DNA from: Scyliorhinus canicula
Lineage: Eukaryota
Length of the DNA stretch: 64,000 bases
Reading direction: 5' to 3'
Assembly (NCBI RefSeq): GCF_902713615.1
Contig: NC_052168.1
Coordinates: 18,054,323-18,118,322, forward strand
Shown here: piece by piece, positions 18,345 to 60,108 of the stretch
Numbering within the stretch: position 1 is the stretch's first letter
Layout of the letters: each line of letters opens with the position of its first letter
The notes under the pieces: generated by a model
Told to the model about the DNA's origin: nothing
Seen by the model: only the letters and a program-made list of their open reading frames with translations
Databases searched by the model: none
Made by a program: the position numbers and the translations under genes

Positions 18345-21300
18345 ACCTTGTCTGGCCTATCTCAGGATTACTACCGGTGCCACGTACTAGTCAGATTAGA
18401 AATGACAGGATACATAGGATGAATACGTGGCTGAAGGGATGGTGTCAGAGGGACGGTTTCAGATTCCTGGGGCATTGGGATCGGTTCTGGAAGAGGTGCG
18501 ACCTGTACAAGCTTGATGGGTTACACCTGGGTAGGACTGGAACTGATGTCCTAGACCGGTTGGGGAGTGTTTAAACTAATGTGGCAGAGGGCTGGGAACC
18601 GATGCATGAAGTCGGAAGGTAGTAAAACAGGGACAGAAACAAAAGGCAGTAAGGTGGAAAGTGTAAGGCAGAGAAGCCATAGTCAAAAATCAAAAAGGGC
18701 GACAGTACAAGGTACAGTGACTGAGGGGAGCTCAGTGAATTGGCCCAGTAATATTAAAAGGAATAAAACGGGAAGTAAAAACATAAATGGAAATTCATAA
18801 TATCAGGTTGTTACATGAAGATATTGGTTCAACGACAAGGAAAGCTGGGAGAAAAGTTAAGAGGAAAAATAACTTAGGAGAGGTTACTGATCAAGGTGTT
18901 AAGATTCAAAACAGAGGTATAAAAGCCAACATTACTGTACTTTACCTGAATGCTCGTAGTATTCGGAATAAGGTAAATGAGTTGATGGCGCAAATCATCG
19001 TGAATGACTATGATTTAGTGGCCATTACTGAAACATGGTTAAAGGATGGTCACAACTGGGAGTTAAATATCCAAGGGTATCAAACTATTCGGAAGGACAG
19101 GTGATGTAGCTCTGTTATTTAAGGATGACATCTGGGCAATAGTAAGAGATGGCATTGGTGCTATGGAGGATAAGGTTGAATCTATTTGGGTGGAAATCAG
19201 GAATAGTAAGGCAAAAAGTCACTGATAGGAGTAGCCTATAGGTCACCAAATAGTAACATTACGGTGGGGCAGGCAATAAATAAAGAAATAACAGATGCAT
19301 GTAGAAATGGTACGGCAGTTATCATGGGGGATTTTAATCTACATGTCGATTGGTTTAACCAGGTCAGTCAAGGCAGCCTTGAGGAGGAGATTATAGAATA
19401 TATTCACGATAGTTTCCTAGAACAGTATGTAATGGAACCTACGAGGGAACAAGTGGTCCTAGATCTGGTCCTGTGTAATGAGATAGGATTGATTAATGAT
19501 CTCATAGTTAGGAATCCTCTCGGAAGGAGCAATCACAATATGGTGGAATTTAAAATACAGATGGAGGGTGAGAAGGTAAAATCAAACACTAGTGTTTTGT
19601 GCTTAAACAAAGAGGATTACAATGGGATGAGAGAAGAGCCAGCTAAAGTAGACTGGGAACAAAGACTTTATGGTGAAACAGTTGAGGAACAGTGGAGAAC
19701 CTTCCAAGCGATTTTTCACAGTGCTCAGCAAAGGTTTATACCAACAAAAAGGAAGGACGGTAGAAAGAGGGAAAATCAACCGTGGATATCTAAGAAAATA
19801 AGGGAGAGTATCAAATTGAAGGAAAAAGCACACATAGTGGCAAAGATTAGTGGGAGACTAGAGGACTGGGAAATTTTTAGGGGACAACAGAAAGCTACTA
19901 AAAAAGCTATAAAAAAGAGTAAGATAGATTATGAGAGTAAACTTGCTCAGAATATAAAAACAGATAGTAAAGGTTTCTACAAATATATAAAATAAAAAAG
20001 AGTGGCTAAGGTAAATATTGGTCCTTTAGAGGATGAGAAGGGAGATTTAATAATGGGAGATGAGGAAATGGCTGAGGAACTGAACAGGTTTTTTGGGTCG
20101 GTCTTCACAGTGGAAGATACAAATAACATGCCAGTGACTGATAGAAATAAGGCTATGACAGGTGAGGACCTTGAGATGATTGTTATCACTAAGGAGGTAG
20201 TGATGGGCAAGCTAATGTGGCTCAAGGTAGACAAGTCTCTTGGCCCTGATGGAATGCATCCCAGAGCGCTAAAAGAGATGGCTAGGGAAATTGCAAATGC
20301 ACGAGTGATAATTCACCAAAATTCACTAGACTCTGAGGTGGTCCCAGCGGATTGGAAATTAGCAAACGTGACACCACTGTTTAAAAAAGGAGGTAGGCAG
20401 AAAGCGGAAATTATAGGCCATTTAACTTAACTTCGGTTGTAGGGAAGATGCTGGAATCTATCATCAAGGAAGAAATAGCAAGGCATCTGGATGGAAATTG
20501 TCCCATTGGGCAGATGTAGCATGGGTTCATAAAGAGCAGGTCGTGCCTAACTAATTTAGTGGAATTTTTTGAGGACATTACCAGTGCGGTAGATAAAAGG
20601 GGGCCAATGGATGTGGTATATCTGGATTTCCAGAAAGCCTTTGACAAGGTGCCACACAAAAGATTGCTGCATAAGATAAAGATGCATGGCATTAAGGGTA
20701 AAGTAGTAGCATGGTTAGAGAATTGGTTAGTTAATAGAAAGCAAAGAGTGGGGATTAATGGGTGTTTGGTTGGCAATCAGTAGTTAGTGATGTCCCTCAG
20801 GGATCAGTGTTGGGCCCACAATTGTTCACAATTTACATAGATGATGTGGAGTTGGGGACCAAGGGCAATGTGTCCAAGTTTGCAGACGACACTAAGATGA
20901 GTGGTAAAGCACAAAGTGCAGAGGATACAGCAAGTCTGCAGAGGGGTTTGGATAGGTTAAGTGAATGGGCTAGGATCTGGCAGATGGAATACAATGTTGA
21001 CAAATGTGAGGTTATCCATTTTGGTAGGAATAACAGCAAAAGGGATTATTATTTAAATGATAAAATATTAAAACATGCTGCTGTGCAGAGACCTAGGTGT
21101 GCTAGTGCATGAGTCTCAAAAAGTTGGTTTACAGGTGCAACAGGTGATTAAGAAGGCAAATGGAATTTTGTCCTTCATTGCTAGAGGGATGGAGTTTAAG
21201 ACTAGGGAGGTTATGCTGCAATTGTACAAGGTGTTAGTGAGGCCACACCTGGAGTATTGTGTTCAGTTTTGGTCTCCTTACCTGAGAAAGGATGTACTGA

Positions 21301-29296: not shown

Positions 29297-32200
29297 CATA
29301 GAACATAGAACATAGAACGATACAGCGCAGTACAGGCCCTTCGGCCCTCGATGTTGCACCGACATGGAAAAAAACTAAAGGCCATCTAACCTACACTATG
29401 CCCTTATCATCCATATGCTTATCCAATAAATTTTTTAATGCCCTCAATGTTGGCGAGTTCACTACTGTTGCAGGTAGGGCATTCCACGGCCTCACCACTC
29501 TTTGCGTAAAAAACCCACCTCTGACCTCTGTCCTATATCTATTACCCCTCAATTTAAGGCTATGTCCCCTCGTGCTAGCCACCGCCATCCACGGGAGAAG
29601 GCTCTCGCTGTCCACCCTATCTAACCCTCTGATCATTTTGTATGCCTCTATTAAGTCACCTCTTAACCTTCTTCTCTCTAACGAAAACAACCTCAAGTCC
29701 GTCAGCCTTTCCTCATAAGATTTTCCCTCCATACCAGGCAACATCCTGGTAAATCTCCTCTGCACCCGTTCCAAAGCTTCCACGTCCTTCCTATAATGAG
29801 GCGACCAGAACTGTACGCAATACTCCAAATGCGGCCGTACTAGAGTTTTGTACAACTGCAACATGACCTCATGGCTCCGGAACTCAATCCCTCTACCAAT
29901 AAAGGCCAACACACCATAGGCCTTCTTCACAACCCTATCAACCTGGGTGGCAACTTTCAAGGATCTATGTACATGGACACCGAGATCCCTCTGCTCATCC
30001 ACACTACCAAGAATTTTACCATTAGCCAAATATTCCGCATTCCTGTTATTCTTTCCAAAGTGAATCACCTCACACTTCTCCACATTAAACTCCATTTGCC
30101 ACCTCTCAGCCCAGCTCGGCAGCGTATCTATGTCCCTCTGTAACCTGCAACATCCTTCCGCACTGTCTACAACTCCACCGACTTTAGTGTCGTCTGCAAA
30201 TTTACTCACCCATCCTTCTGCGCCCTCCTCTAGGTCATTTATAAAAATGACAAACAGCAACGGCCCCAGAACAGATCCTTGTGGTACGCCACTCGTAACT
30301 GAACTCCATTCTGAACATTTCCCATCAACTACCACTCTCTGTCTTCTTTCAACTAGCCAATTTCTGATCCACATCTCTAAATCACCCTCAATCCCCAGCC
30401 TCTGTATTTTCTGCAATAGCCGACCGTGGGGAACCTTATCAAACGCTTTACTGAAATCCATATACACCACATCAACTGCTCTACCCTCGTCTACCTGTTC
30501 AGTCACCTTCTCAAAGAACTCGATAAGGTTTGTGAGGCATGACCTACCCTTCACAAAACCATGCTGACTATCCCTAATCATATTATTCCTATCTAGATGA
30601 TTATAAATCGTATCTTTTATAATCCTCTCCAAGACCTTACCCACCACAGACGTTAGGCTCACCGGCCTATAGTTACCGGGGTTATCTCTACTCCCCTTCT
30701 TGAACAAAGGGACCACATTTGCTATCCTCCAGTCCTCTGGCACTATTCCTGTAGCCAATGATGACCTAAAAATCAAAGCCAAAGGCTCAGCAATCTCTTC
30801 CCTGGCTTCCCAGAGAATCCGAGGATAAATCCCATCCGGCCCCGGGGACTTATCTATTTTCACCTTGTCCAGAATTGCCAACACTTCTTCCCTACGCACC
30901 TCAATGCCATCTATTCTAATAGCCTGGGTCTCAGCATTCTCCTCCACAATATTATCTTTTTCTTGAGTGAATACTGACGAAAAGTATTCATTTAGTATCT
31001 CGCTTATCTCCTCAGCCTCCACACACAACTTCCCACCACTGTCCTTGACTGGCCCTACTCTTACCCTAGTCATTCTTTTATTCCTGACATACCTATAGAA
31101 AGCTTTTGGGTTTTCCTTGATCCTACCTGCCAAAGACTTCTCATGTCCCCTCCTTGCTCGTCTCAGCTCTCTCTTTAGATCCTTCCTCGCTTCCTTGTAA
31201 CTATCAAGCGCCCCAACTGAAACTTCATGCCTCATCTTCACATAGGCCTCCTTCTTCCTCTTAACAAGAGATTCCACTTCTTTGGTAAACCACGGTTCCC
31301 TCGCTCGACCCCTTCCTCCCTGCCTGACTGGTACGTACTTATCAAGAACATGCAATAGCTGTTCCTTGAACAAGCTCCACATATCCAGTGTGCCCAACCC
31401 TTTCAGCCTACTTCTCCAACCAACACATCCTAAGTCATGTCTAATGGCATCATAATTGCCCTTCCCCAGCTATAACTCTTGCCCTGCGGGGTATACTTAT
31501 CCCTTTCCATCACTAACGTAAAGGTCACCGAATTGTGGTCACTGTTTCCAAAGTGCTCACCTACCTCCAGATCTAACACCTGGCCTGGTTCATTACCCAA
31601 AACCAAATCCAATGTGGCCTCGCCTCTTGTTGGCCTGTCAACATATTGTGTCAGGAAACCCTCCTGCACACATTGTACAAAGAACGACCCATCTAATGTA
31701 CTCGAACTATATCTTTTCCAGTCAATATTTGGAAAGTTAAAGTCTCCCATAACAACTACCCTGTTACTTTCGCTCTTTTCCAGAATCATCTTCGCCATCC
31801 TTTCCTCTACATCCCTAGAACTATTAGGTGGCCTATAGAAAACTCCCAACAGGGTGACCTCTCCTTTCCTGTTTCTAACCTCAGCCCATACTACCTCAGA
31901 AGAAGAGTCCCCATCTAGCATCCTTTCCGCCACCGTAATACTGTCCTTGACTAGCAGCGCCACACCTCCCCCTCTTTTGCCCCCTTCTCTGAGCTTACTA
32001 AAACACCTAAACCCCGGAACCTGCAACAACCATTCCTGTCCCTGCTCTATCCATGTCTCTGAAATGGCCACAACGTCGAAGTCCCAGGTACCAACCCATG
32101 CTGCCAGTTCCCCTACCTTATTTTGTATACTCCTGGCATTGAAGTAGACACACTTCAAACCACCTACCTGAACACTGGCACCCTCCTGCGAAGTCAAATC

Positions 32201-32590
32201 TGTGCTCCTGACCTCTATACTCTCAATCTCCCGTACCCCAAAACTACAATCCAGGTTCCCATGCCCCTGCTGAATTAGTTTAAACCCCCCCAAAGAGCAC
32301 TAACAAATCTCCCCCCCAGGATATTGGTGCCCCTCAGGTTCAGATGTAGACCATCCTGTCTATAGAGGTCCCACCTTCCCCAGAAAGAGCCCCAGTTATC
32401 CAGAAATCTGAATCCCTCCCGCCTGCACCATCCCTGTAGCCACGTGTTTAATTGCTCTCTCTCCCTATTCCTCATCTCACTATCACGTGGCACGGGCAAC
32501 AACCCAGAGATAACAACTCTGTTTGTTCTCGCTCTGAGCTTCCATCCTAGCTCCCTAAAGGCCTGCCTGACATCCTTGTCCCCTTTCCTT
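29297..32590 (-). mobile_element. Young CR1 LINE: ORF1 C-terminus plus near-intact ORF2 (APE-RT)
   Basis: ORF1 esterase-like end (32275-32502). ORF2 APE (32293-31430) and RT (31397-29391, FADD) are separated by a single 1-nt frameshift at ~31464. (CATAGAA)n tail. Confidence 0.97.
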
Positions 32591-32876: not shown

Positions 32877-33700
32877 TGTCGGCTGCAAAGAGACATAGAT
32901 AGGATGCAGAGCTGGGCTGAGAAGTGGCAGATGGAGTTTAAGCCTGAAAAGTGTGAGGTTGTCCATTTTGGAAGGACAAATATGAATGCGGAATACAGGG
33001 TTAACAGTAGGGTTCTTGGCAATGTGGAGGAGCAGAGAGATCTTGGGGTCTATGTTCATAGATCTTTGAAAGTTACCACTCAAGTGGATAGAGCTGTGAA
33101 GAAGGTGTGCTAGCGTTCATTAGCAGAGGGATTGGATTTCAGAGCCGTGAGGTGATGATGCAGCTGTACAAAACCTTGGTAAGGCCACATTTGGAGTACT
33201 GTGTGCAGTTCTGGTCGCCTCATTTTAGGGAGGATGTGGAAGCTTTGGAAAAGGTGCAAAGGAGATTTACCAGGATGTTGCCTGGAATAGAGAGTAGGAA
33301 AGCTCGGCCTTTTCTCATTAGAACGGAGAAGGATGAGGGGCGACTTGATAGAGGTTTATAAGATGATCAGGGGAATAAATAGAGTAGACAGTCAGAGACT
33401 TTTTCCCTGGTGGAACAAACCATTACAAGGTGACATAAATTTAAGGTAAATGGTGGAAGATATAGGCGGGATGTCAGAAGTAGGTTCTTTACCCAGAGAG
33501 TAGTGGGGGCATGGAATGCACTGCCTGTGGAAGTAGTTGAGTCAGAAACATTAGGGACCTTCAAGCGGCTATTGGATAGGTACATGGATTACGGTAGAAT
33601 GATTGGGTGTAGATTAATGTGTTCTTAATCTCGGACAAAAGTTCGATACAACATCGTGGGCCGAAGGGCCTGTTCTGTGCTGCATTTTTCTATGTTCTAT
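32877..33700 (+). mobile_element. CR1 3' fragment inserted in an older - strand CR1 (32590-34210)
   Basis: RLQRDIDRMQSWAEKWQMEF...LYKTLVRPHLEYC. The flanking - strand pieces encode the ORF1 end and the APE start. Confidence 0.9.
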
Positions 33701-35009
33701 GTCCCTCTTAAGTTCTGCCTTCTAGACTGACTTGGTTTCTATTCTATAATTTGCTGTGCATCACCGCCTCCACTCTGTAATTTACCTCGCATCGAATTAG
33801 TTTACCCCCCCCCCCCCCCCCCCCCCCCACAGTGCCAGCAAATCTCTCCACAAGATTATCCGTTCCATTCTGGTCCAGGTGCAACCCATCCGAATTGTAC
33901 AGGTCCCACCTTCCCCAGAAACAGACCCAGTGATCCAGGAAACTGAAGCTCTCCCTCCTACACCATCTTTCACCCACGCATTCATCTGCTTTAACCTCCT
34001 ATTCCGATACTCACTAGCACGTGGCACCGGGAGTAATCCAGAGATTACAACCTTTAAGATCCTGCTTTTCAATCTGCTGCCTGGCTCTTGCTGCAGGGCC
34101 TCATCCCTCTTTCTATCTCTGTCATTGGTACCGATGTGAACCGCGACCTCCGACTGTTCACCCTCCTCCTTCAGAGTGCCCTGCAGCCGTTCACTGACAT
34201 CCTTGACCCTCGTTACGGGGATAGGGCAGGGGAGTGGGCTGAGATGGGATACTCTTTCAGAGGGTTAGTGCGGACTCAATGGGCAGAATGGCCTCCTTGT
34301 GAACTGTAGGCACTCTATGATTCACAACCTACCGATCAGCACTCTCCCTTTTCACCACTACGCCTTCAGCAGGGCAAAACTACTTTTGAAGATGGAAAAG
34401 TTAAAGAGCAAAAGGGCTGTATCTCCCAGTGCTCATACACAAATCTTACTGACCATGTGCTTCTTGCAGTCCCTTTCTTAAATAGAGCTGAGTCACTCCT
34501 GGTTTAGCTTCAACGGTAATCAACACCTATCGAGGCCCTTATTCAGGCTTCAGGTGATTGATAGTTAACTTTTTAACCTTTTAACTAGGCGACTTAACTT
34601 GAAAGCGCTTAAAAGAAAAAGACTTACCAGTTCGATTCCCACTTTGCTCCAAATTCCCAAGTGCACACACTCCCGCTGTGTCACACTCAGGCGATGTCTG
34701 TCCCAGTGCTCATGTGCGAATCTTACTTGGGGAAGTGGAACTAATTAAATCATTCAGCATGGAACCAATGGGCTGAAGGTCTTCCTTCTGTGTTGCATGT
34801 TTCTACAATTCCATTACATCAATCCCATTGGATAGCGATGATATGCCAATTCATTCCTAGTCACTGAACTGATATGTCAAATAAGTCCAATTCTGGTCTG
34901 ACTCCATGTGAGTGACTCCGGAGTCACAGTAATGTGGTTGACTGTGAAGTAGCCTAGCAAGACACGCAGTTCAAGGGCAATTAGAGATGGGCAATAAATG
35001 CTGGCCTAA

Positions 35010-45654: not shown

Positions 45655-46154
45655 NNNNNNNNNNNNNNNNNNNNNNNNNNNNNNNNNNNNNNNNNNNNNN
45701 NNNNNNNNNNNNNNNNNNNNNNNNNNNNNNNNNNNNNNNNNNNNNNNNNNNNNNNNNNNNNNNNNNNNNNNNNNNNNNNNNNNNNNNNNNNNNNNNNNNN
45801 NNNNNNNNNNNNNNNNNNNNNNNNNNNNNNNNNNNNNNNNNNNNNNNNNNNNNNNNNNNNNNNNNNNNNNNNNNNNNNNNNNNNNNNNNNNNNNNNNNNN
45901 NNNNNNNNNNNNNNNNNNNNNNNNNNNNNNNNNNNNNNNNNNNNNNNNNNNNNNNNNNNNNNNNNNNNNNNNNNNNNNNNNNNNNNNNNNNNNNNNNNNN
46001 NNNNNNNNNNNNNNNNNNNNNNNNNNNNNNNNNNNNNNNNNNNNNNNNNNNNNNNNNNNNNNNNNNNNNNNNNNNNNNNNNNNNNNNNNNNNNNNNNNNN
46101 NNNNNNNNNNNNNNNNNNNNNNNNNNNNNNNNNNNNNNNNNNNNNNNNNNNNNN
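45655..46154. other. Assembly gap (500 N)
   Basis: Run of n. Confidence 1.
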
Positions 46155-47500
46155 AGAAAACAGAGAGAGAGAGAGTGTGTGAGTGAGAGTGGGGGGATGG
46201 ATAGAGAGTGTGAGGGATGGGGAGAGAGAGAGTGAGGGATGGAGAGAGAGAGTGAGGGGTGGGGAGTGAGAGAGAGGGGGGATGGATAGAGAGAGAATGA
46301 GTGAGGGATGGAGAGAGAGTGAGTGATAGAGAGGGATAGAGAGTGAGAAATGGAGACAATGAGGGATGGTGAGAGAGAGTGTGTGAGAGAGAGAGTGAGG
46401 GATAGAGAGAGAGTGTGAGGGATGGAGAGAGAGAGAGTGAGGAATGGAGAGAGAGGGATGGAGAGTGAGGGATGGAGAGAGAGAGTGAGGGATGGAGAGA
46501 GAGAGTGAGGGATGGAGAGTGAAGGATGGAGAGAGAGAGTGAGGGATGGAGAGAGTGAGGGATGGAGAGAGTGAGGGAGGGATAGAGATGGAGAGAGTGA
46601 GGGAGGGATAGAGAGAGAGAGTGAGGGAGGGATAGAGAGAGAGTGAGGGATGGAGAGAGAGTGAGAGATGCAGAGAGAGGGATGGAGAGAGAGAGTGAGG
46701 GATGGAGAAAGAGTAAGGGATGGAGAGAGGAAGTGACAGATAAGAGGGAGTGTGAGTGAGGGATAGAGAGATTGTGAGTGAGGGATAGAGAGAGAGTGTG
46801 GAGAGAGGGAGTGTGTGAATGAGTGAGAAATGGAGAGAGAGAGGAATAGAGCGTGAGGAAGGGATAGAGAGAGAGTGAGCGAGGGATAGAGTGTGAGAGA
46901 AATAGTGAGTGTGAGAAAGAGGGTGTGTGAGTGAGGAATGGAGATTGAGGGAGGGATAGAGAGCGAGTGATTGAGGGAGAGAGAGTGTGAGGGATAGAGC
47001 GAGTGAGGAATGGAGAGTGAGTGGTGGAGAGAGGCAGTGTGTGAGTGAGGAATGGAGAGAGAAGAATGGAGCGTGAGGGAGGGATAGAGAGTGTGAGAGA
47101 AATGGAGAGTGAGTGAGACAGAGAGAGTGTGTGGAACAGGGAGAATGACTGAGAGAGAAAGTGAGTGAGGAATTGAGAGTGTGAGGAATGGGGAGAGAGG
47201 GTGAGGGATAGAGAGAGGGAGTGAGAGAGTGTGAGGAATGGAGAGAATGAGTGAGAGAGTGAGTGAGGAATGGAGAATGATGAGAGAGTCAGAGAGAGAG
47301 TGCGGGATTGAGGGAGAATGAGAGCGTGTGAGTTAGGATAGAGAGTCAGATAGAGAGATTCAGGGAGAGAGGGATGGAGAGAATGAGAGGAAGGATAGAG
47401 AGTGAGTGAGGGATAGAGAGAGGGGGTCAAAGTGATTGAGGGATAGAGAGATGGATAGGGAGAATGAGTGAGAGAGGGATAGACTAGGGGGGGTGTTAGC
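46155..47500. repeat. Degenerate polypurine (GA/GGAT/GAGT) tract
   Basis: Almost C-free + strand. Gives the S/L/H/P-rich pseudo-ORF. Confidence 0.95.
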
Positions 47501-48424: not shown

Positions 48425-48739
48425 TTAACCCCGTGCTATACCAGCCCTGGGAGTGTTTGATACGGACGGTGTAGAGGGAGCTTTACTCTGTATCTAACCC
48501 CGTGCTGTACCTGTCCTGGGAGTGTCTGATGGGGACGGTGTAGAGGGAGCTTTACTTTGTATCTAACCCCGTGCTGTACCTGTCCTGGGAGTGTTTGATG
48601 GGGACAGTGTAGAGGGAGCTTACTCTGTATCTAACCGCGTGCTGTACCTGTCCTGGGAGTGTTTGATGGGGACAGTGTAGAGGGAGCTTTACTCTCTATC
48701 TAACCCCGTGCTGTACCGGTCCTGGGAGTGTTTGATGGG
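48425..48739. repeat. ~69-bp tandem repeat (~4.5 copies)
   Basis: GTGTAGAGGGAGCTTTACTCTGTATCTAACCCCGTGCTGTACCTGTCCTGGGAGTGTTTGATGGGGACA. An inverted relative lies at 12715-12810. Confidence 0.9.
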
Positions 48740-52599: not shown

Positions 52600-53925
52600 T
52601 GATCGAACGCATGACCCCGGTCCGATACAGAGTGACTGAGACCATGACCCCGGTCAGAAACAGAGTGACCGAACGCATGACCCCGGCCCGATACAGAGTG
52701 ACTGAGACCATGACCCCGGTCCGACACAGAGTGACTGAGACCATGACCCCGGTCAGACACAGAGTGGCCAAACGCATGACCCCGGCCCGATACAGAGTGA
52801 CTGAGACCATGACCCCGGTCCGACACAGAGTGACTGAAACCATGTCCCTGGTCAGACACAGAGTGACTGAGACCATGACCCCGGTCAAAACGGAGTGGCC
52901 GAATGCATGACCCCGGTCAGACACAGAGTGACCGAACGCATGACCCCGGTCAGACACAGAGTGACTGAGACCATAACCCCGGCCCGATACAGAGTGACTG
53001 AGACCATGACCCCGGTCAGACACAGAGTGACTGAAACCATGACCCCGGTCAGACACAGAGTGACTGAGACCATGACCCCGGTCAGACACAGAGTGACTGA
53101 GACCATGACCCCGGTCAGACACAGAGTGACTGAGACCATGACCCCGGTCCGTAACAGAGTGACTGAGACCATAACCCCGGTCAGACACAGAGTGACTGAG
53201 ACCATGACCCCGGTCAGACACAGAGTGACTGAGACCATGACCCCGGTCAGACACAGAGTGACTGAAACCATGACCCCGGTCAGACACAGAGTGACTGAAA
53301 CCATGACCCCGGTCAGACACAGAGTGACTGAGACCATGACCCCGGTCAGACACAGAGTGACTGAGACCATGACCCCGGTCAGACACAGAGTGACTGAGAC
53401 CATGACCCCGGTCCGTAACAGAGTGACTGAGACCATGACCCCGGTCAGACACAGAGTGACTGAGACCATGACCCCGATCCGTAACAGAGTGACTGAGACC
53501 ATGACCCCGGTCAGACACAGAGTGACTGAGACCATGACCCCGGTCCGTAACAGAGTGACCGAATTCATGACCCCGGTCCGACACAGAGTGACCGAACGCA
53601 TGACCCCGGTCCGACACAGAGTGACCGAACGCATGACCCCGGTCAGACACAGAGTGGCCGAATGCGTGATGCCGGTCAGACACAGAGTGACCGAACGCAT
53701 GACCCAGGTCCGACACAGAGTGACTGAAACCATGTCCCTGGTCAGACACAGAGTGACTGAGGCCATGACCCCGGTCCGACACAGAGTGACCGAACGCATG
53801 ACCTGGTCCGACACAGAGTGACTGAAACCATGTCCCTGGTCAGACACAGAGTGACTGAGGCCATGACCCCGGTCAAAAACAGAGTGACTGAGACCATGAC
53901 CCCGGTCAAAAACAGAGTGACTAAA
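52600..53925. repeat. 33-bp minisatellite (ACAGAGTGACTGAGACCATGACCCCGGTCAGAC), ~40 copies
   Basis: Direct reading; 11-aa periodic ORFs. Confidence 0.97.
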
Positions 53926-55384: not shown

Positions 55385-58300
55385 TGGTACTGCCTGTTGT
55401 CATGGTGTTATTGATATCTGTACCGCCTGTTGTCACAGTGTTATTGATATCGGTACCGCCTGTTGTCACGGTGTTATTGATATCGGTACCGCCTGTTGTC
55501 ACGGTGTTATTGATATCGGTACCGCCTGTTGTCACGGTGTTATTGATGTCTGTACCGCCTGTTGTCACAGTGTTATTGATATCGGTACCGCCTGTTGTCA
55601 CGGTGTTATTGCTATCGGTACCGCCTGTTGTCACGGTGTTATTGATATTGGTACCGCCTGTTGTCACGGTGTTATTGATGTCTGTACCGCCTGTTGTCAC
55701 GGTGTTATTGATATCGGTACCGCCTGTTGTCACGGTGTTATTGCTATTGGTACCGCCTGTTGTCACGGTGTTATTGCTATTGGTACCGCCTGTTGTCACG
55801 GTGTTATTGATGTCTGTACCGCCTGTTGTCACAGTGTTATTGATATCGGTACCGCCTGTTGTCACGGTGTTATTGCTATCGGTACCGCCTGTTGTCACGG
55901 TGTTATTGATGTCTGTACCGCCTGTTGTCACGGTGTTATTGATATCGGTACCACCTGTTGTCACGGTGTTATTGATATCGGTACCACCTGTTGTCACGGT
56001 GTTATTGATATCGGTACCGCCTGTTGTCACGGTGTTATTGATGTCTGTACCGCCTGTTGTCACAGTGTTATTGATATCGGTACCGCCTGTTGTCACGGTG
56101 TTATTGCTATCGGTACCGCCTGTTGTCACGGTGTTATTGATGTCTGTACCGCCTGTTGTCACGGTGTTATTGATATCGGTACCGCCTGTTGTCATGGTGT
56201 TATTGCTATCGGTACCACCTGTTGTCATGGTGTTATTGCTATCGGTACCGCCTGTTGTCACGGTGTTATTGCTATCAGTACCGCCTGTTGTCATGGTGTT
56301 ATTGATGTCTGTACCGCCTGTTGTCACGGTGTTATTGATATCGGTACCGCCTGTTGTCATGGTGTTATTGATATCGGTACCGCCTGTTGTCACGGTATTA
56401 TTGATATCGATACCGCCTGTTGTCACGGTGTTATTGCTATCGGTACCGCCTGTTGTCACGGTGTTATTGATATCGGTACCGCCTGTTGTCACGGTGTTAT
56501 TGATATCGGTACCGCCTGTTGTCACGGTGTTATTGATATCGGTACCGCCTGTTGTCACGGTGTTATTGCTATCGGTACCGCCTGTTGTCACGGTGTTATT
56601 GATATCGGTACCGCCTGTTGTCATGGTGTTATTGATGTCTGTACCGCCTGTTGTCACGGTGTTATTGATATCGGTACTGCCTGTTGTCACGGTGTTATTG
56701 ATATCGGTACCGCCTGTTGTCACGGTATTATTGATATCGATACTGCCTGTTGTCACGGTGTTATTGCTATCGGTACCGCCTGTTGTCACGGTGTTATTGA
56801 TATCAGTACCGCCTGTTGTCACGGTGTTATTGATATCGGTACCGCCTGTTGTCACAGTGTTATTGATATCGGTACCGCCTGTTGTCACGGTGTTATTGAT
56901 ATCAGTACCGCCTGTTGTCACGGTGTTATTGATATCGGTATCGCCTGTTTTTACATAGAATTTACAGTGCAGAAGGAGGCCATTCGGCCCATCGAGTCTG
57001 CACCAGCTCTTGGAGAGAGCACCCTACCCCCTACCCAAGGTCAATACCTCCACCCTATCGCCATAACTCAGTAACCCCACCCAACACTAAGGGCAATTTT
57101 GAACACTAAGGGCAATTTATCATGGCCAATCCACCTAACCCGCACATCTTTGGACTGTGGGAGGAAACCGGAGCACCCGGAGGAAACCTACGCACACACA
57201 GGGAGGATGTGCAGACTCCGCACAGACAGTGACCCAAGCCGGAATCGAACCTGGGACCTTGGAGCTGTGAAGCAATTGTGCTATCCACAATGCTACCGTG
57301 CTGCCACGGTGTTATTGATATCGGTACCGCCTGTTGTCACGGTATTATTGATATCGGTACCGCCTGTTGTCACAGTGTTATTGATATCGGTACCGTCTGT
57401 TGTCACGGTGTTATTGATATCAGTACCGCCTGTTGTCACGGTATTATTGATATCGGTACCGCCTGTTGTCACAGTGTTATTGATATCGGTACCACCTGTT
57501 GTCACGGTGTTATTGATAGCGGTACCGCCTGTTGTCACAGTGTTATTGATATCGGTACCGCCTGTTGTCACGGTGTTATTGATATCGGTACCGCCTGTTG
57601 TCACGGTGTTATTGATATCGGTACCGCCTGTTGTCACGGTGTTATTGATATCGGTACCGCCTGTTGTCACGGTGTTATTGATATCGGTACCGCCTGTTGT
57701 CACGGTGTTATTGATATCGGTACCGCCTGTTGTCACAGTGTTATTGATATCGGTACCGCCTGTTATCATGTTATCATGGTGTTATTGATATCGATACCAC
57801 CTGTTGTCACGGTGTTATTGATATCGGTACCGCCTGTTGTCACGGTGTTATTGATATCGGTACCGCCTGTTGTCATGGTGTTATTGATATCGATACCGCC
57901 TGTTATCACAGTGTTATTGATATCGGTACCGCCTGTTATCACGGTGTTATTGATAACGGTACCGCCTGTTGTCACGGTGTTATTGATATCGGTACCGCCT
58001 GTTGTCACGGTGTTATTGATATCGGTACCGTTGTTGTCACGGTGTTATTGACATCGGTACCGCCTGTAGTCAAGATGTTATTGATATTGGTGCCGCCTGT
58101 TGTCACGGTGTTATTGATATCGGTACCGCCTGTTATCATGGTGTTATTGATATCGGTACCGTCTGTTGTCACGGTGTTATTGATATCGATACCGCCTGTT
58201 GTCACGGTGTTATTGATATCGGTACCGTTGTTGTCACGGTGTTATTGATATCGGTACCGCCTGTTGTCACGGTGTTATTGATATCGGTACCGCCTGTTGT

Positions 58301-58632
58301 CATGGTGTTATTGATATCGGTACCGCCTGTTGTCACGGTGTTATTGATATCGGTACCGCCTGTTGTCACGGTGTTATTGATATCGATACCACCTGTTGTC
58401 ACGGTGTTATTGATATCGGTGCCGCCTGTTGTCACGGTGTTATTGATATCGGTACCGCCTGTTGTCACGGTGTTATTGATATCGGTACCGCCTGTTGTCA
58501 CGGTGTTATTGATATCGGTACCGCCTGTTGTCACGGTGTTATTGATATCGGTACCGCCTGTTGTCATGGTGTTATTGATATCTGTACTGCCTGTTGTCAC
58601 GGTGTTATTGATAGCGGTACCGCCTGTTGTCA
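55385..58632. repeat. 33-bp minisatellite (GGTACCGCCTGTTGTCACGGTGTTATTGATATC), ~85 copies, interrupted by a SINE at 56954-57305
   Basis: Direct reading; source of the 521-573 aa periodic ORFs. Confidence 0.97.
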
Positions 58633-58891
58633 CCGAATTTCTGGGGCACATCGATACTTCTGTTGAAAACAAACAAGTGATTTATAAATATTTTTGTACA
58701 ACTTTCATCATATTATACATTGTCTCTATTTCTGAAGCCATGGATCCCAAAGCCTTTTTTTTAATGTCCTCCAACCTCAAAGGCCTGGAGACACACAGCG
58801 CTACTCTGTCACTAGAACAAAGAACAGTACAGCACAGGAACAGGCCCTTCAGCCCTCCAAGCCTGTACAGGTCATGATACTAACCTTGGCA

Positions 58892-59399: not shown

Positions 59400-60055
59400 A
59401 ATGCGGAGGCTTGTTCACTCGCTGGAGTTCAATGTGGGCGCACCCTCACTCACTGGGGCCCAATATGGAGGGACCCTCACTCACTGGGGGCCTAATGGGG
59501 AGGGACCCTCACTCACTGGGGGCCCAATGCGGAGGGACCCTCACTCACTGGGCACCCAATGCAGAGGGACCCTCACTCACTGGGGGCCCAATGGGGAGGG
59601 ATCCTCGCTCACTGGGGCCCAATCCGGATGGACCCTCACTCACTGGGGGCCCAATGGGGAGGGACCCTCACTCACTGGGGGCCTAATGGGGAGGGACCCT
59701 CACTCACTGGGGGCCCAATGCGGAGGGACCCTCACTCACTGGGGGCCCAATGGGGAGGGACCCTCACTCACTGGGGCTCAATGCGGAGGGACCCTCACTC
59801 ACTGGGGGCCCAATGGGGAGGGACCCTCACTCACTGGGGGCCCAATGGGGAGGGACCCTCGCTCACTGGGGACCCAATGGGGAGGGACCCTCCCTCACTG
59901 GGGGCCCAATGGGGAGGGACCCTCGCTCACTGGGGGCCCAATGGGGAGGACCCTCACTCACTGGGGGCCCAATCCGGACGGACCCTCACTCACTGGGGGC
60001 CCAATCCGGACGGACCCTCACTCACTGGGGCCCAATCCGGACGGACCCTCACTTA
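59400..60055. repeat. ~31-32 bp GC-rich minisatellite (GGAGGGACCCTCACTCACTGGGGGCCCAATGG)
   Basis: Direct reading. Confidence 0.95.
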
Positions 60056-60108
60056 CTGCAATAACTGTTGTCATTCTCATTTAATCTTGGCATTTATCGA
60101 TTTTCCAG

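Follow-up and report, generated by a model that had tools for sequence, protein, structure and literature searches.

The window analysed here is a stretch of 64,000 nucleotides from Scyliorhinus canicula. On its minus strand, positions 29304–32589 are occupied by a young, 5′-truncated CR1 LINE of family A, 99.06% identical over 3289 nt to L193, a full-length family A copy with both ORFs open. A short tail of 7-nt repeats lies near 29300–29320. What is left of ORF1 (32275–32589) is the C-terminal 104 codons of an SGNH/GDSL esterase and a TAA stop. PF13472 matched this truncated ORF1 with an E value of 2.6e-7 and 31.7 bits, just under the curated cut-off of 32.9, and the full ORF1 of locus L001 retrieved 88 homologues, most of them with PF13472; the nearest named ones are from sharks and rays. 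The first part of ORF2 (31430–32299) lies in the −1 frame and consists of a 46-codon linker and an APE endonuclease (PF03372, above cut-off). The second part (29391–31469), out of frame with the first, encodes the reverse transcriptase (PF00078, E 7e-36, above cut-off). Judged by these domains, the homologues and the rows of a published consensus library, the element is a vertebrate esterase-type CR1 LINE. Such elements are placed in CR1 subgroup 7, with an ORF1 of type IVB, in the relevant extracts of PMC4120745 and PMC13343379. Canonical vertebrate CR1 likewise has an esterase ORF1 and an ORF2 with APE and reverse transcriptase, and the junction motif described below occurs in published consensus rows. 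The copy in the window is dead, as the first two thirds of ORF1 are missing and ORF2 is broken near 31470. The question raised by its junction therefore concerns family A and not this single copy.

Read on the minus strand, ORF1 ends GGT TTA AAC TAA. The slippery heptamer U_UUA_AAC (32284–32278) stands in the ORF1 phase directly before the stop (32277–32275), as the initial annotation had claimed. The open part of the −1 frame runs from 32299 to 31430 and starts only 5 codons upstream of the heptamer. Its first ATG (31921–31919) is codon 121, counting the heptamer as 0, and the endonuclease motif begins at codon 46; the claim that ORF2 lies in the −1 frame with no ATG before the endonuclease thus also holds. 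A conserved run of G, a candidate stimulator, is found at +11 to +14 after the heptamer (32267–32264). With the codon usage of these ORF1s, chance would place a canonical in-phase heptamer at any one codon position with p of about 0.002. The two strands of the window together contain the heptamer 14 times, and it is followed by TAA or TAG twice, both times at a CR1 junction. An ATG 12 nt past the stop (32262–32260) was considered as the ORF2 start and rejected: it shares the frame of ORF1 and varies between rows of the junction alignment described below, 7/13 of which have T at +17.

The other of these two junctions belongs to a second CR1 copy, of family B/D, on the plus strand (18570–18581). 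It contains the same heptamer (18570–18576), a TAA (18577–18579) and a TAATG overlap (18577–18581) with the ATG in the ORF2 frame. The young locus L195 matches this copy over 2962 nt with 92.8% identity. The initial annotation had listed the junction as a further instance of TTTAAAC-TAA. The letters are present, but an upstream deletion puts ORF1 out of phase with them, and the heptamer is in phase only in the family of this copy. A third, old copy on the minus strand has a junction at 33797–33806, which had been described as decayed; we located the decayed motif at 33805–33797, behind a long, expanded G run. A single query returned no other copy of this third element from the S. canicula genome at E 1e-20 or better. 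Between 32590 and 34300 the young family A copy adjoins endonuclease remnants (32875–32633) of the older third copy, and the 3′ end of another CR1 lies on the plus strand near 33500–33700, forming nested insertions with both. Elsewhere in the window, long open frames are explained by tandem arrays with units of 29, 18–20, 69, 33, 33 and 32 bases, the arrays lying at 7247–10596, 46162–47483, 48426–48739, 52610–53922, 55386–58633 and 59442–60058. Positions 45655–46154 are a 500-base assembly gap.

Copies of the CR1 families were then compared across the 4.2 Gb S. canicula genome. In family A, 146 of 150 scored matches were identical across the last 99 ORF1 residues. All 30 fetched loci have the heptamer and a −1 frame that opens 5 codons before it; in 28 of them the first ORF2 Met falls at 116–121. 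As these loci are young and were chosen by protein identity, they are evidence of layout and not of selection. Family A2, which was recovered again in a protein search of the genome with P0020, has the heptamer in 30/30 loci and its first Met mostly at 156–177. Family D, to which the 18570 copy belongs, has TAATG with the ATG in the ORF2 frame in 20/20 loci and an intact heptamer in 19 of the 20. The family E set comprises 22 loci (25 were fetched, of which two came from other families and one was not captured). Its ORF1 ends Thr-Leu-Asn-Phe, placing the stop one codon later, and the heptamer is kept in 22/22 loci, in 21 of which a stop codon closes the −1 frame one codon upstream. The first Met of family E is at codon 82 in 14 loci, at 16 in four and elsewhere in four, the endonuclease motif being at 68. 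Families A, A2 and E are therefore mostly without an ATG before the endonuclease, the four family E loci with ATG at codon 16 being exceptions. In families A, A2, D and E the same layout is found in full-length copies whose two ORFs are open, and five such copies (L193, L194, L196, L204 and L206) have no ATG before the endonuclease. A further 200 kb spot-sampled from the genome contained one more junction, which was decayed, and protein searches of the genome with P0209 and P0133 at strict cut-offs gave no matches.

Seven A2 copies, L197–L203, carry an insertion of one or four letters in the G7-T3 run before the heptamer, which places ORF1 and ORF2 in one frame of 898–1320 codons. The seven do not group together as a clade: for four of them the closest neighbour is unfused, and in one the gained letter is a T. 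They therefore probably arose by independent slips or are assembly errors, and we find no support for an active subfamily with fused ORFs. A long frame was the reason for fetching five of the seven, and the sample gives no rate of fusion. These copies bear on one alternative account of the junction, in which a polymerase slips on the upstream G7-T3 run and adds a base to some RNAs, joining the frames. The G7 run precedes the heptamer in families A and A2, and the seven genomic copies show that extra letters there do join the frames. However, families D and E and the bird-type rows described below have the heptamer and no G7 run, and we consider polymerase slippage extremely improbable.

The initial annotation had proposed a search for synonymous-site change in an alignment of CR1 junctions. 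Our alignment contains 13 vertebrate-type rows, nine from the shark's own genome (shark-type) and four bird-type, anchored at the ORF1 end via the esterase motif; one row was placed by its junction string, and family E was set back one codon. Row H partly duplicates family A2 in some of the counts, among them those of folding and of Leu codon frequency; the invariance counts use H's own junction. All seven letters of the heptamer are identical in 13/13 rows, which are related by descent and are not independent trials, and none of 24 upstream positions is invariant. ORF1 identity between shark-type and bird-type rows is 29–36%. The terminal Leu is TTA and the terminal Asn is AAC in every row. 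At each of five other conserved Leu columns four different codons occur, TTA makes up 10% of Leu codons, and another conserved Asn is split 7:6. Invariant codons were found at one of 21 other conserved columns (2/27 in a second count). The residue before Leu-Asn is Gly, Thr, Val, Ser, Cys or Ala, and the third letter of its codon is T in all 13 rows. Among 43 representative proteins ending Leu-Asn one has a residue here that cannot be encoded with a final T, against 45/258 at the six preceding positions (p 0.01).

The −1 frame is closed 1–5 codons before the heptamer in 11 of the 13 rows. Dual coding by an ORF2 started upstream therefore cannot explain the conservation. Family E leads to the same conclusion: it keeps the heptamer and the G run with the stop shifted and the −1 frame closed just upstream, so that upstream initiation of ORF2 is no explanation there. 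The junctions thus combine an X_XXY_YYZ heptamer in the zero-frame phase, an ORF2 open in the −1 frame and conservation beyond coding need.

The same ORF1 ending was found beyond the own genome. Among the 88 ORF1 homologues, 39 end 20–32 residues past the esterase motif, 38 of them with a final Leu-Asn. When 150 representatives at 50% identity were taken, 85 ended 20–40 residues past the motif, 43 in Leu-Asn and 56 in Asn; two representatives looked up by name were from a turtle and a snake. A metagenome scan gave 16 loci, of which five have an intact ORF1 end, two are broken upstream but have the heptamer, eight are cut before the junction and one is both broken and cut. Bird-type elements, a label which like 'invertebrate-type' was assigned by likeness only, carry the heptamer in 4/4 cases with an intact ORF1 end and also in two broken ones. 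The invertebrate-type locus L151 has G_UUA_AAC, a −1 frame open for 823 codons, and an ATG at codon 28, before the endonuclease. The heptamer rule X_XXY_YYZ, GUU as a tolerated variant, and TURBS are covered in PMC3542737; because GUU is tolerated, L151 counts in favour of frameshifting. In the consensus library of PMC13343379, 16 of 22 displayed rows with TTAAAC followed by TAA or TAG have the motif at the ORF1 end, as judged by eye; 22 of 25 matches are displayed, with about the first 400 letters of each row. The first T of the heptamer is present in 16/16 of these rows, although the query did not contain it. We interpret the row codes as alligator, crocodile, bowfin, frog, coelacanth, chimaera, rays, sharks and one deep-sea fish. 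Because the search selects for the motif, the library gives its spread and not its frequency. Viral contigs yielded one unrelated match and otherwise nothing. Genome contigs gave ten loci without a canonical heptamer, nine that appear to encode bacterial SGNH proteins and one belonging to another LINE.

Several distant sequences differ at the ORF1 end. In all eight distant ORF1 proteins with a final Gly-Asn (P0134, P0136, P0139, P0142, P0147, P0149, P0175 and P0202) the preceding residue is Gln, and the heptamer G_GGA_AAC could encode this Gln-Gly-Asn end; Lys-Asn, Glu-Asn or Ser-Asn stands at the end of others. U_UUA_AAC and G_GGA_AAC are listed among the most shift-prone heptamers in the part of PMC5009743 consulted. 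A LINE-like element in a bacterial MAG contig, L207 (1605–4192), is likely animal contamination. It has an esterase-like ORF1 with a zinc knuckle, a single TAG and an ORF2 in the same frame with its first Met 28 codons on, possibly a junction of the readthrough type. CR1 ORF1 sequences also appear under unlikely names (P0008, P0067, P0034, P0063 and P0064), namely a Pseudomonas protein, a flatworm parasite protein, and gene models from rays for ribosomal protein S24 and TMEM204 isoforms; these would be contamination or CR1 exonised in gene models.

Termination–reinitiation would account for the ORF arrangement in another way. Ribosomes would terminate at the end of ORF1 and initiate again on an AUG or near-cognate codon that overlaps its stop, making ORF2p a separate protein. 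The initial annotation had named the TAATG overlap as a competing model, and the overlap is real: TAATG is present in 20/20 family D/G loci. In three of the four intact bird-type rows an in-frame ATG lies 2 nt past the stop; the loci with an ATG there are L152, L154, L155 and L156. Over the whole alignment, an AUG at or next to the stop is found in 5/13 rows (D, G and three bird-type) and is absent from 8/13. The codon overlapping the stop is ATT, ATA or CTG in A, A2, B2, E and H, and it is ATG or one letter off in seven of the nine shark-type rows. Precedents are the UAAUG of SART1 (PMC3708506) and L1, whose ORF2 start tolerates any sense codon (PMC1965478), each as described in the portion of the paper seen. 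SART1 and mammalian L1, in which reinitiation is AUG-independent, are like CR1 in having a two-ORF LINE RNA, and the UAAUG overlap of SART1 is that of family D.

The ATG, however, is not fixed. Older sister subfamilies of family D have ATA or no ATG at that codon, F has GTT, I has GTA, L153 has GTG and L157 has TGG; by eye, two alligator consensus rows of the library, within the letters displayed, have no ATG-like codon at the junction. UGGGA occurs 40–90 nt upstream of the stop in only one of 14 rows (E, at 81 nt). In six shark-type rows it lies about 96 nt upstream, where it encodes Trp-Asp; a scan of 90 nt in the four bird-type rows, B2 and L151 found no UGGGA. Nor does reinitiation account for a heptamer whose seven letters never vary, synonymous sites included. 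In contrast to SART1 and L1, the ATG of CR1 varies between families and the heptamer is fixed. We regard reinitiation as the main rival but an unlikely one; it may also operate beside frameshifting in the families that have an ATG.

The region downstream of the heptamer was also compared. G is present at +11 to +14 in 13/13 rows, and also at +19, and forms a run of 4–6 G about 10 nt past the heptamer. Two of the conserved G are third positions of −1-frame codons, one of them beneath four different amino acids. In family E the G run keeps a constant distance to the heptamer and not to the stop. The initial annotation had suggested a downstream fold for hairpin, pseudoknot or G-quadruplex; none is conserved, no hairpin, stem or pseudoknot-type stem being shared among the 15 rows in which single stems and nested folds were scored. 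Folding z values lay between −1.04 and +1.13 in 14/15 rows (−0.15 for the window copy) and reached −2.42 in one bird-type row, and the best stems across rows were no better than those of shuffles. Four tracts of three or more G within 60 nt were found in only 3/13 vertebrate-type rows; a three-tier quadruplex is therefore not general. No C-rich partner for the G run was conserved at a distance in 14 longer loci. With no conserved stem or hairpin and few rows with four tracts, the G-rich block is not a structural stimulator of the coronavirus type. Of the suggestion that this block could stimulate frameshifting, the conserved short G run stands, and the hairpin, the stem and a general G-quadruplex do not.

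Conservation of this kind could also reflect another role of the nucleic acid, such as a protein-binding or packaging site or an internal promoter-like palindrome, with ORF2 made from a shorter or spliced RNA. The heptamer together with the preceding G is palindromic in several families, and the downstream G run is conserved in sequence without structure. Such a role would leave the exact phase, the 1–5 codon overlap and the GUU variant unexplained, and on a shorter RNA families A, A2 and E would still be without an ATG. As for splicing, there is no AG before the G run in families E and I, which makes a conserved splice acceptor unlikely. Contigs from four sequencing runs, whose RNA origin is only guessed, cross the junction without a gap; the one skip near the junction in them has TT..GG ends and fits the different linker of a sister subfamily, and we give these contigs no weight. 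We judge this explanation to be very unlikely.

The best reading of these junctions is that ORF2 is probably expressed by programmed −1 frameshifting at the heptamer, giving an ORF1–ORF2 fusion protein. Ribosomes would reach U_UUA_AAC at the end of ORF1, and some would slip back one base by tandem −1 slippage. The minority slipping past the stop would make the fusion, which in family A would be about 1,270 residues long (308 ORF1 and 962 ORF2 codons), and the remainder would terminate and release ORF1p. The outcome would be a low, Gag-Pol-like ratio of ORF2 to ORF1. Our guess is that ribosomes would pause because of the stop next to the heptamer and the G run some 10 nt further on, and not because of folded RNA. 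The DNA itself establishes that the heptamer is present, in phase and conserved at synonymous sites, that the ORFs overlap by 1–5 codons and that most loci of three young families have no ATG before the endonuclease. Of the earlier suggestion that CR1 makes an ORF1–ORF2 fusion, the fixed heptamer at synonymous sites and the mostly ATG-less A, A2 and E thus speak in favour, and the fusion itself is a predicted product.

The arrangement resembles the −1 sites of retroviruses and coronaviruses, in which the same heptamer stands in phase where an ORF for structural proteins overlaps the polymerase ORF, the latter being in the −1 frame. CR1 differs from them in having a short G run instead of a conserved stem-loop or pseudoknot 5–9 nt downstream, in having its stop immediately after the heptamer or one codon later, and in being a LINE. 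By heptamer and phase the CR1 slip site would be a canonical −1 site, and because no conserved downstream structure was found it is classed as a variant of that type. The arterivirus −2 frameshift has as its RNA signal a short stretch without structure, some 10 nt downstream. That frameshift is stimulated by a protein, nsp1beta with PCBP, according to the part of PMC5009743 consulted, and is a precedent for protein stimulation; the CR1 run is G-rich, and no protein binding it is known. Among non-LTR elements, Dictyostelium TRE5-A and TRE3-A are said, in a review legend, to require a −1 frameshift for ORF2 (PMC5911963). They are APE-type elements like CR1, but distant, amoebozoan and with another ORF1.

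In the literature searched we found no description of this CR1 frameshift site; older accounts of CR1 (chicken and turtle CR1, 1997; Kapitonov and Jurka 2003) may already contain such a suggestion. The extracts of PMC4120745 and PMC13343379 mention no frameshift and do not address how ORF2 is translated, and those of the latter contain nothing on ORF overlap, start codon or translation either. The first 300,000 characters of PMC5009743 do not mention CR1, and LINE ORF2 is attributed there to unusual initiation. In the portion seen of PMC11835228, frameshifting appears only for a retrovirus.

A broader proposal, to which we give somewhat less than an even chance, is that esterase-type CR1 elements as a rule express ORF2 by programmed −1 frameshifting and did so ancestrally, in hosts ranging from sharks to birds as well as among their invertebrate relatives. 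Frameshifting would yield a Gag-Pol-like ORF1p–ORF2p fusion and be driven by an unstructured signal, the adjacent stop and a G run at the mRNA entrance, perhaps bound by protein. The relatives ending Gln-Gly-Asn would use G_GGA_AAC.

How LINE ORF2 is translated from a two-ORF RNA is described as unclear in the excerpt of PMC3708506, and the LINE cases that have been tested point to reinitiation. CR1-group elements are the dominant retrotransposons in most vertebrates, according to the extract of PMC13343379. A conserved shift site would make the ORF2 question testable with a reporter of about 100 bases. If programmed frameshifting is correct, the CR1 enzyme would be made joined to the ORF1 protein, as in retroviruses. 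The annotation of CR1 ORF2 starts would change, and these elements would provide a frameshift signal that seems to operate without folded RNA.
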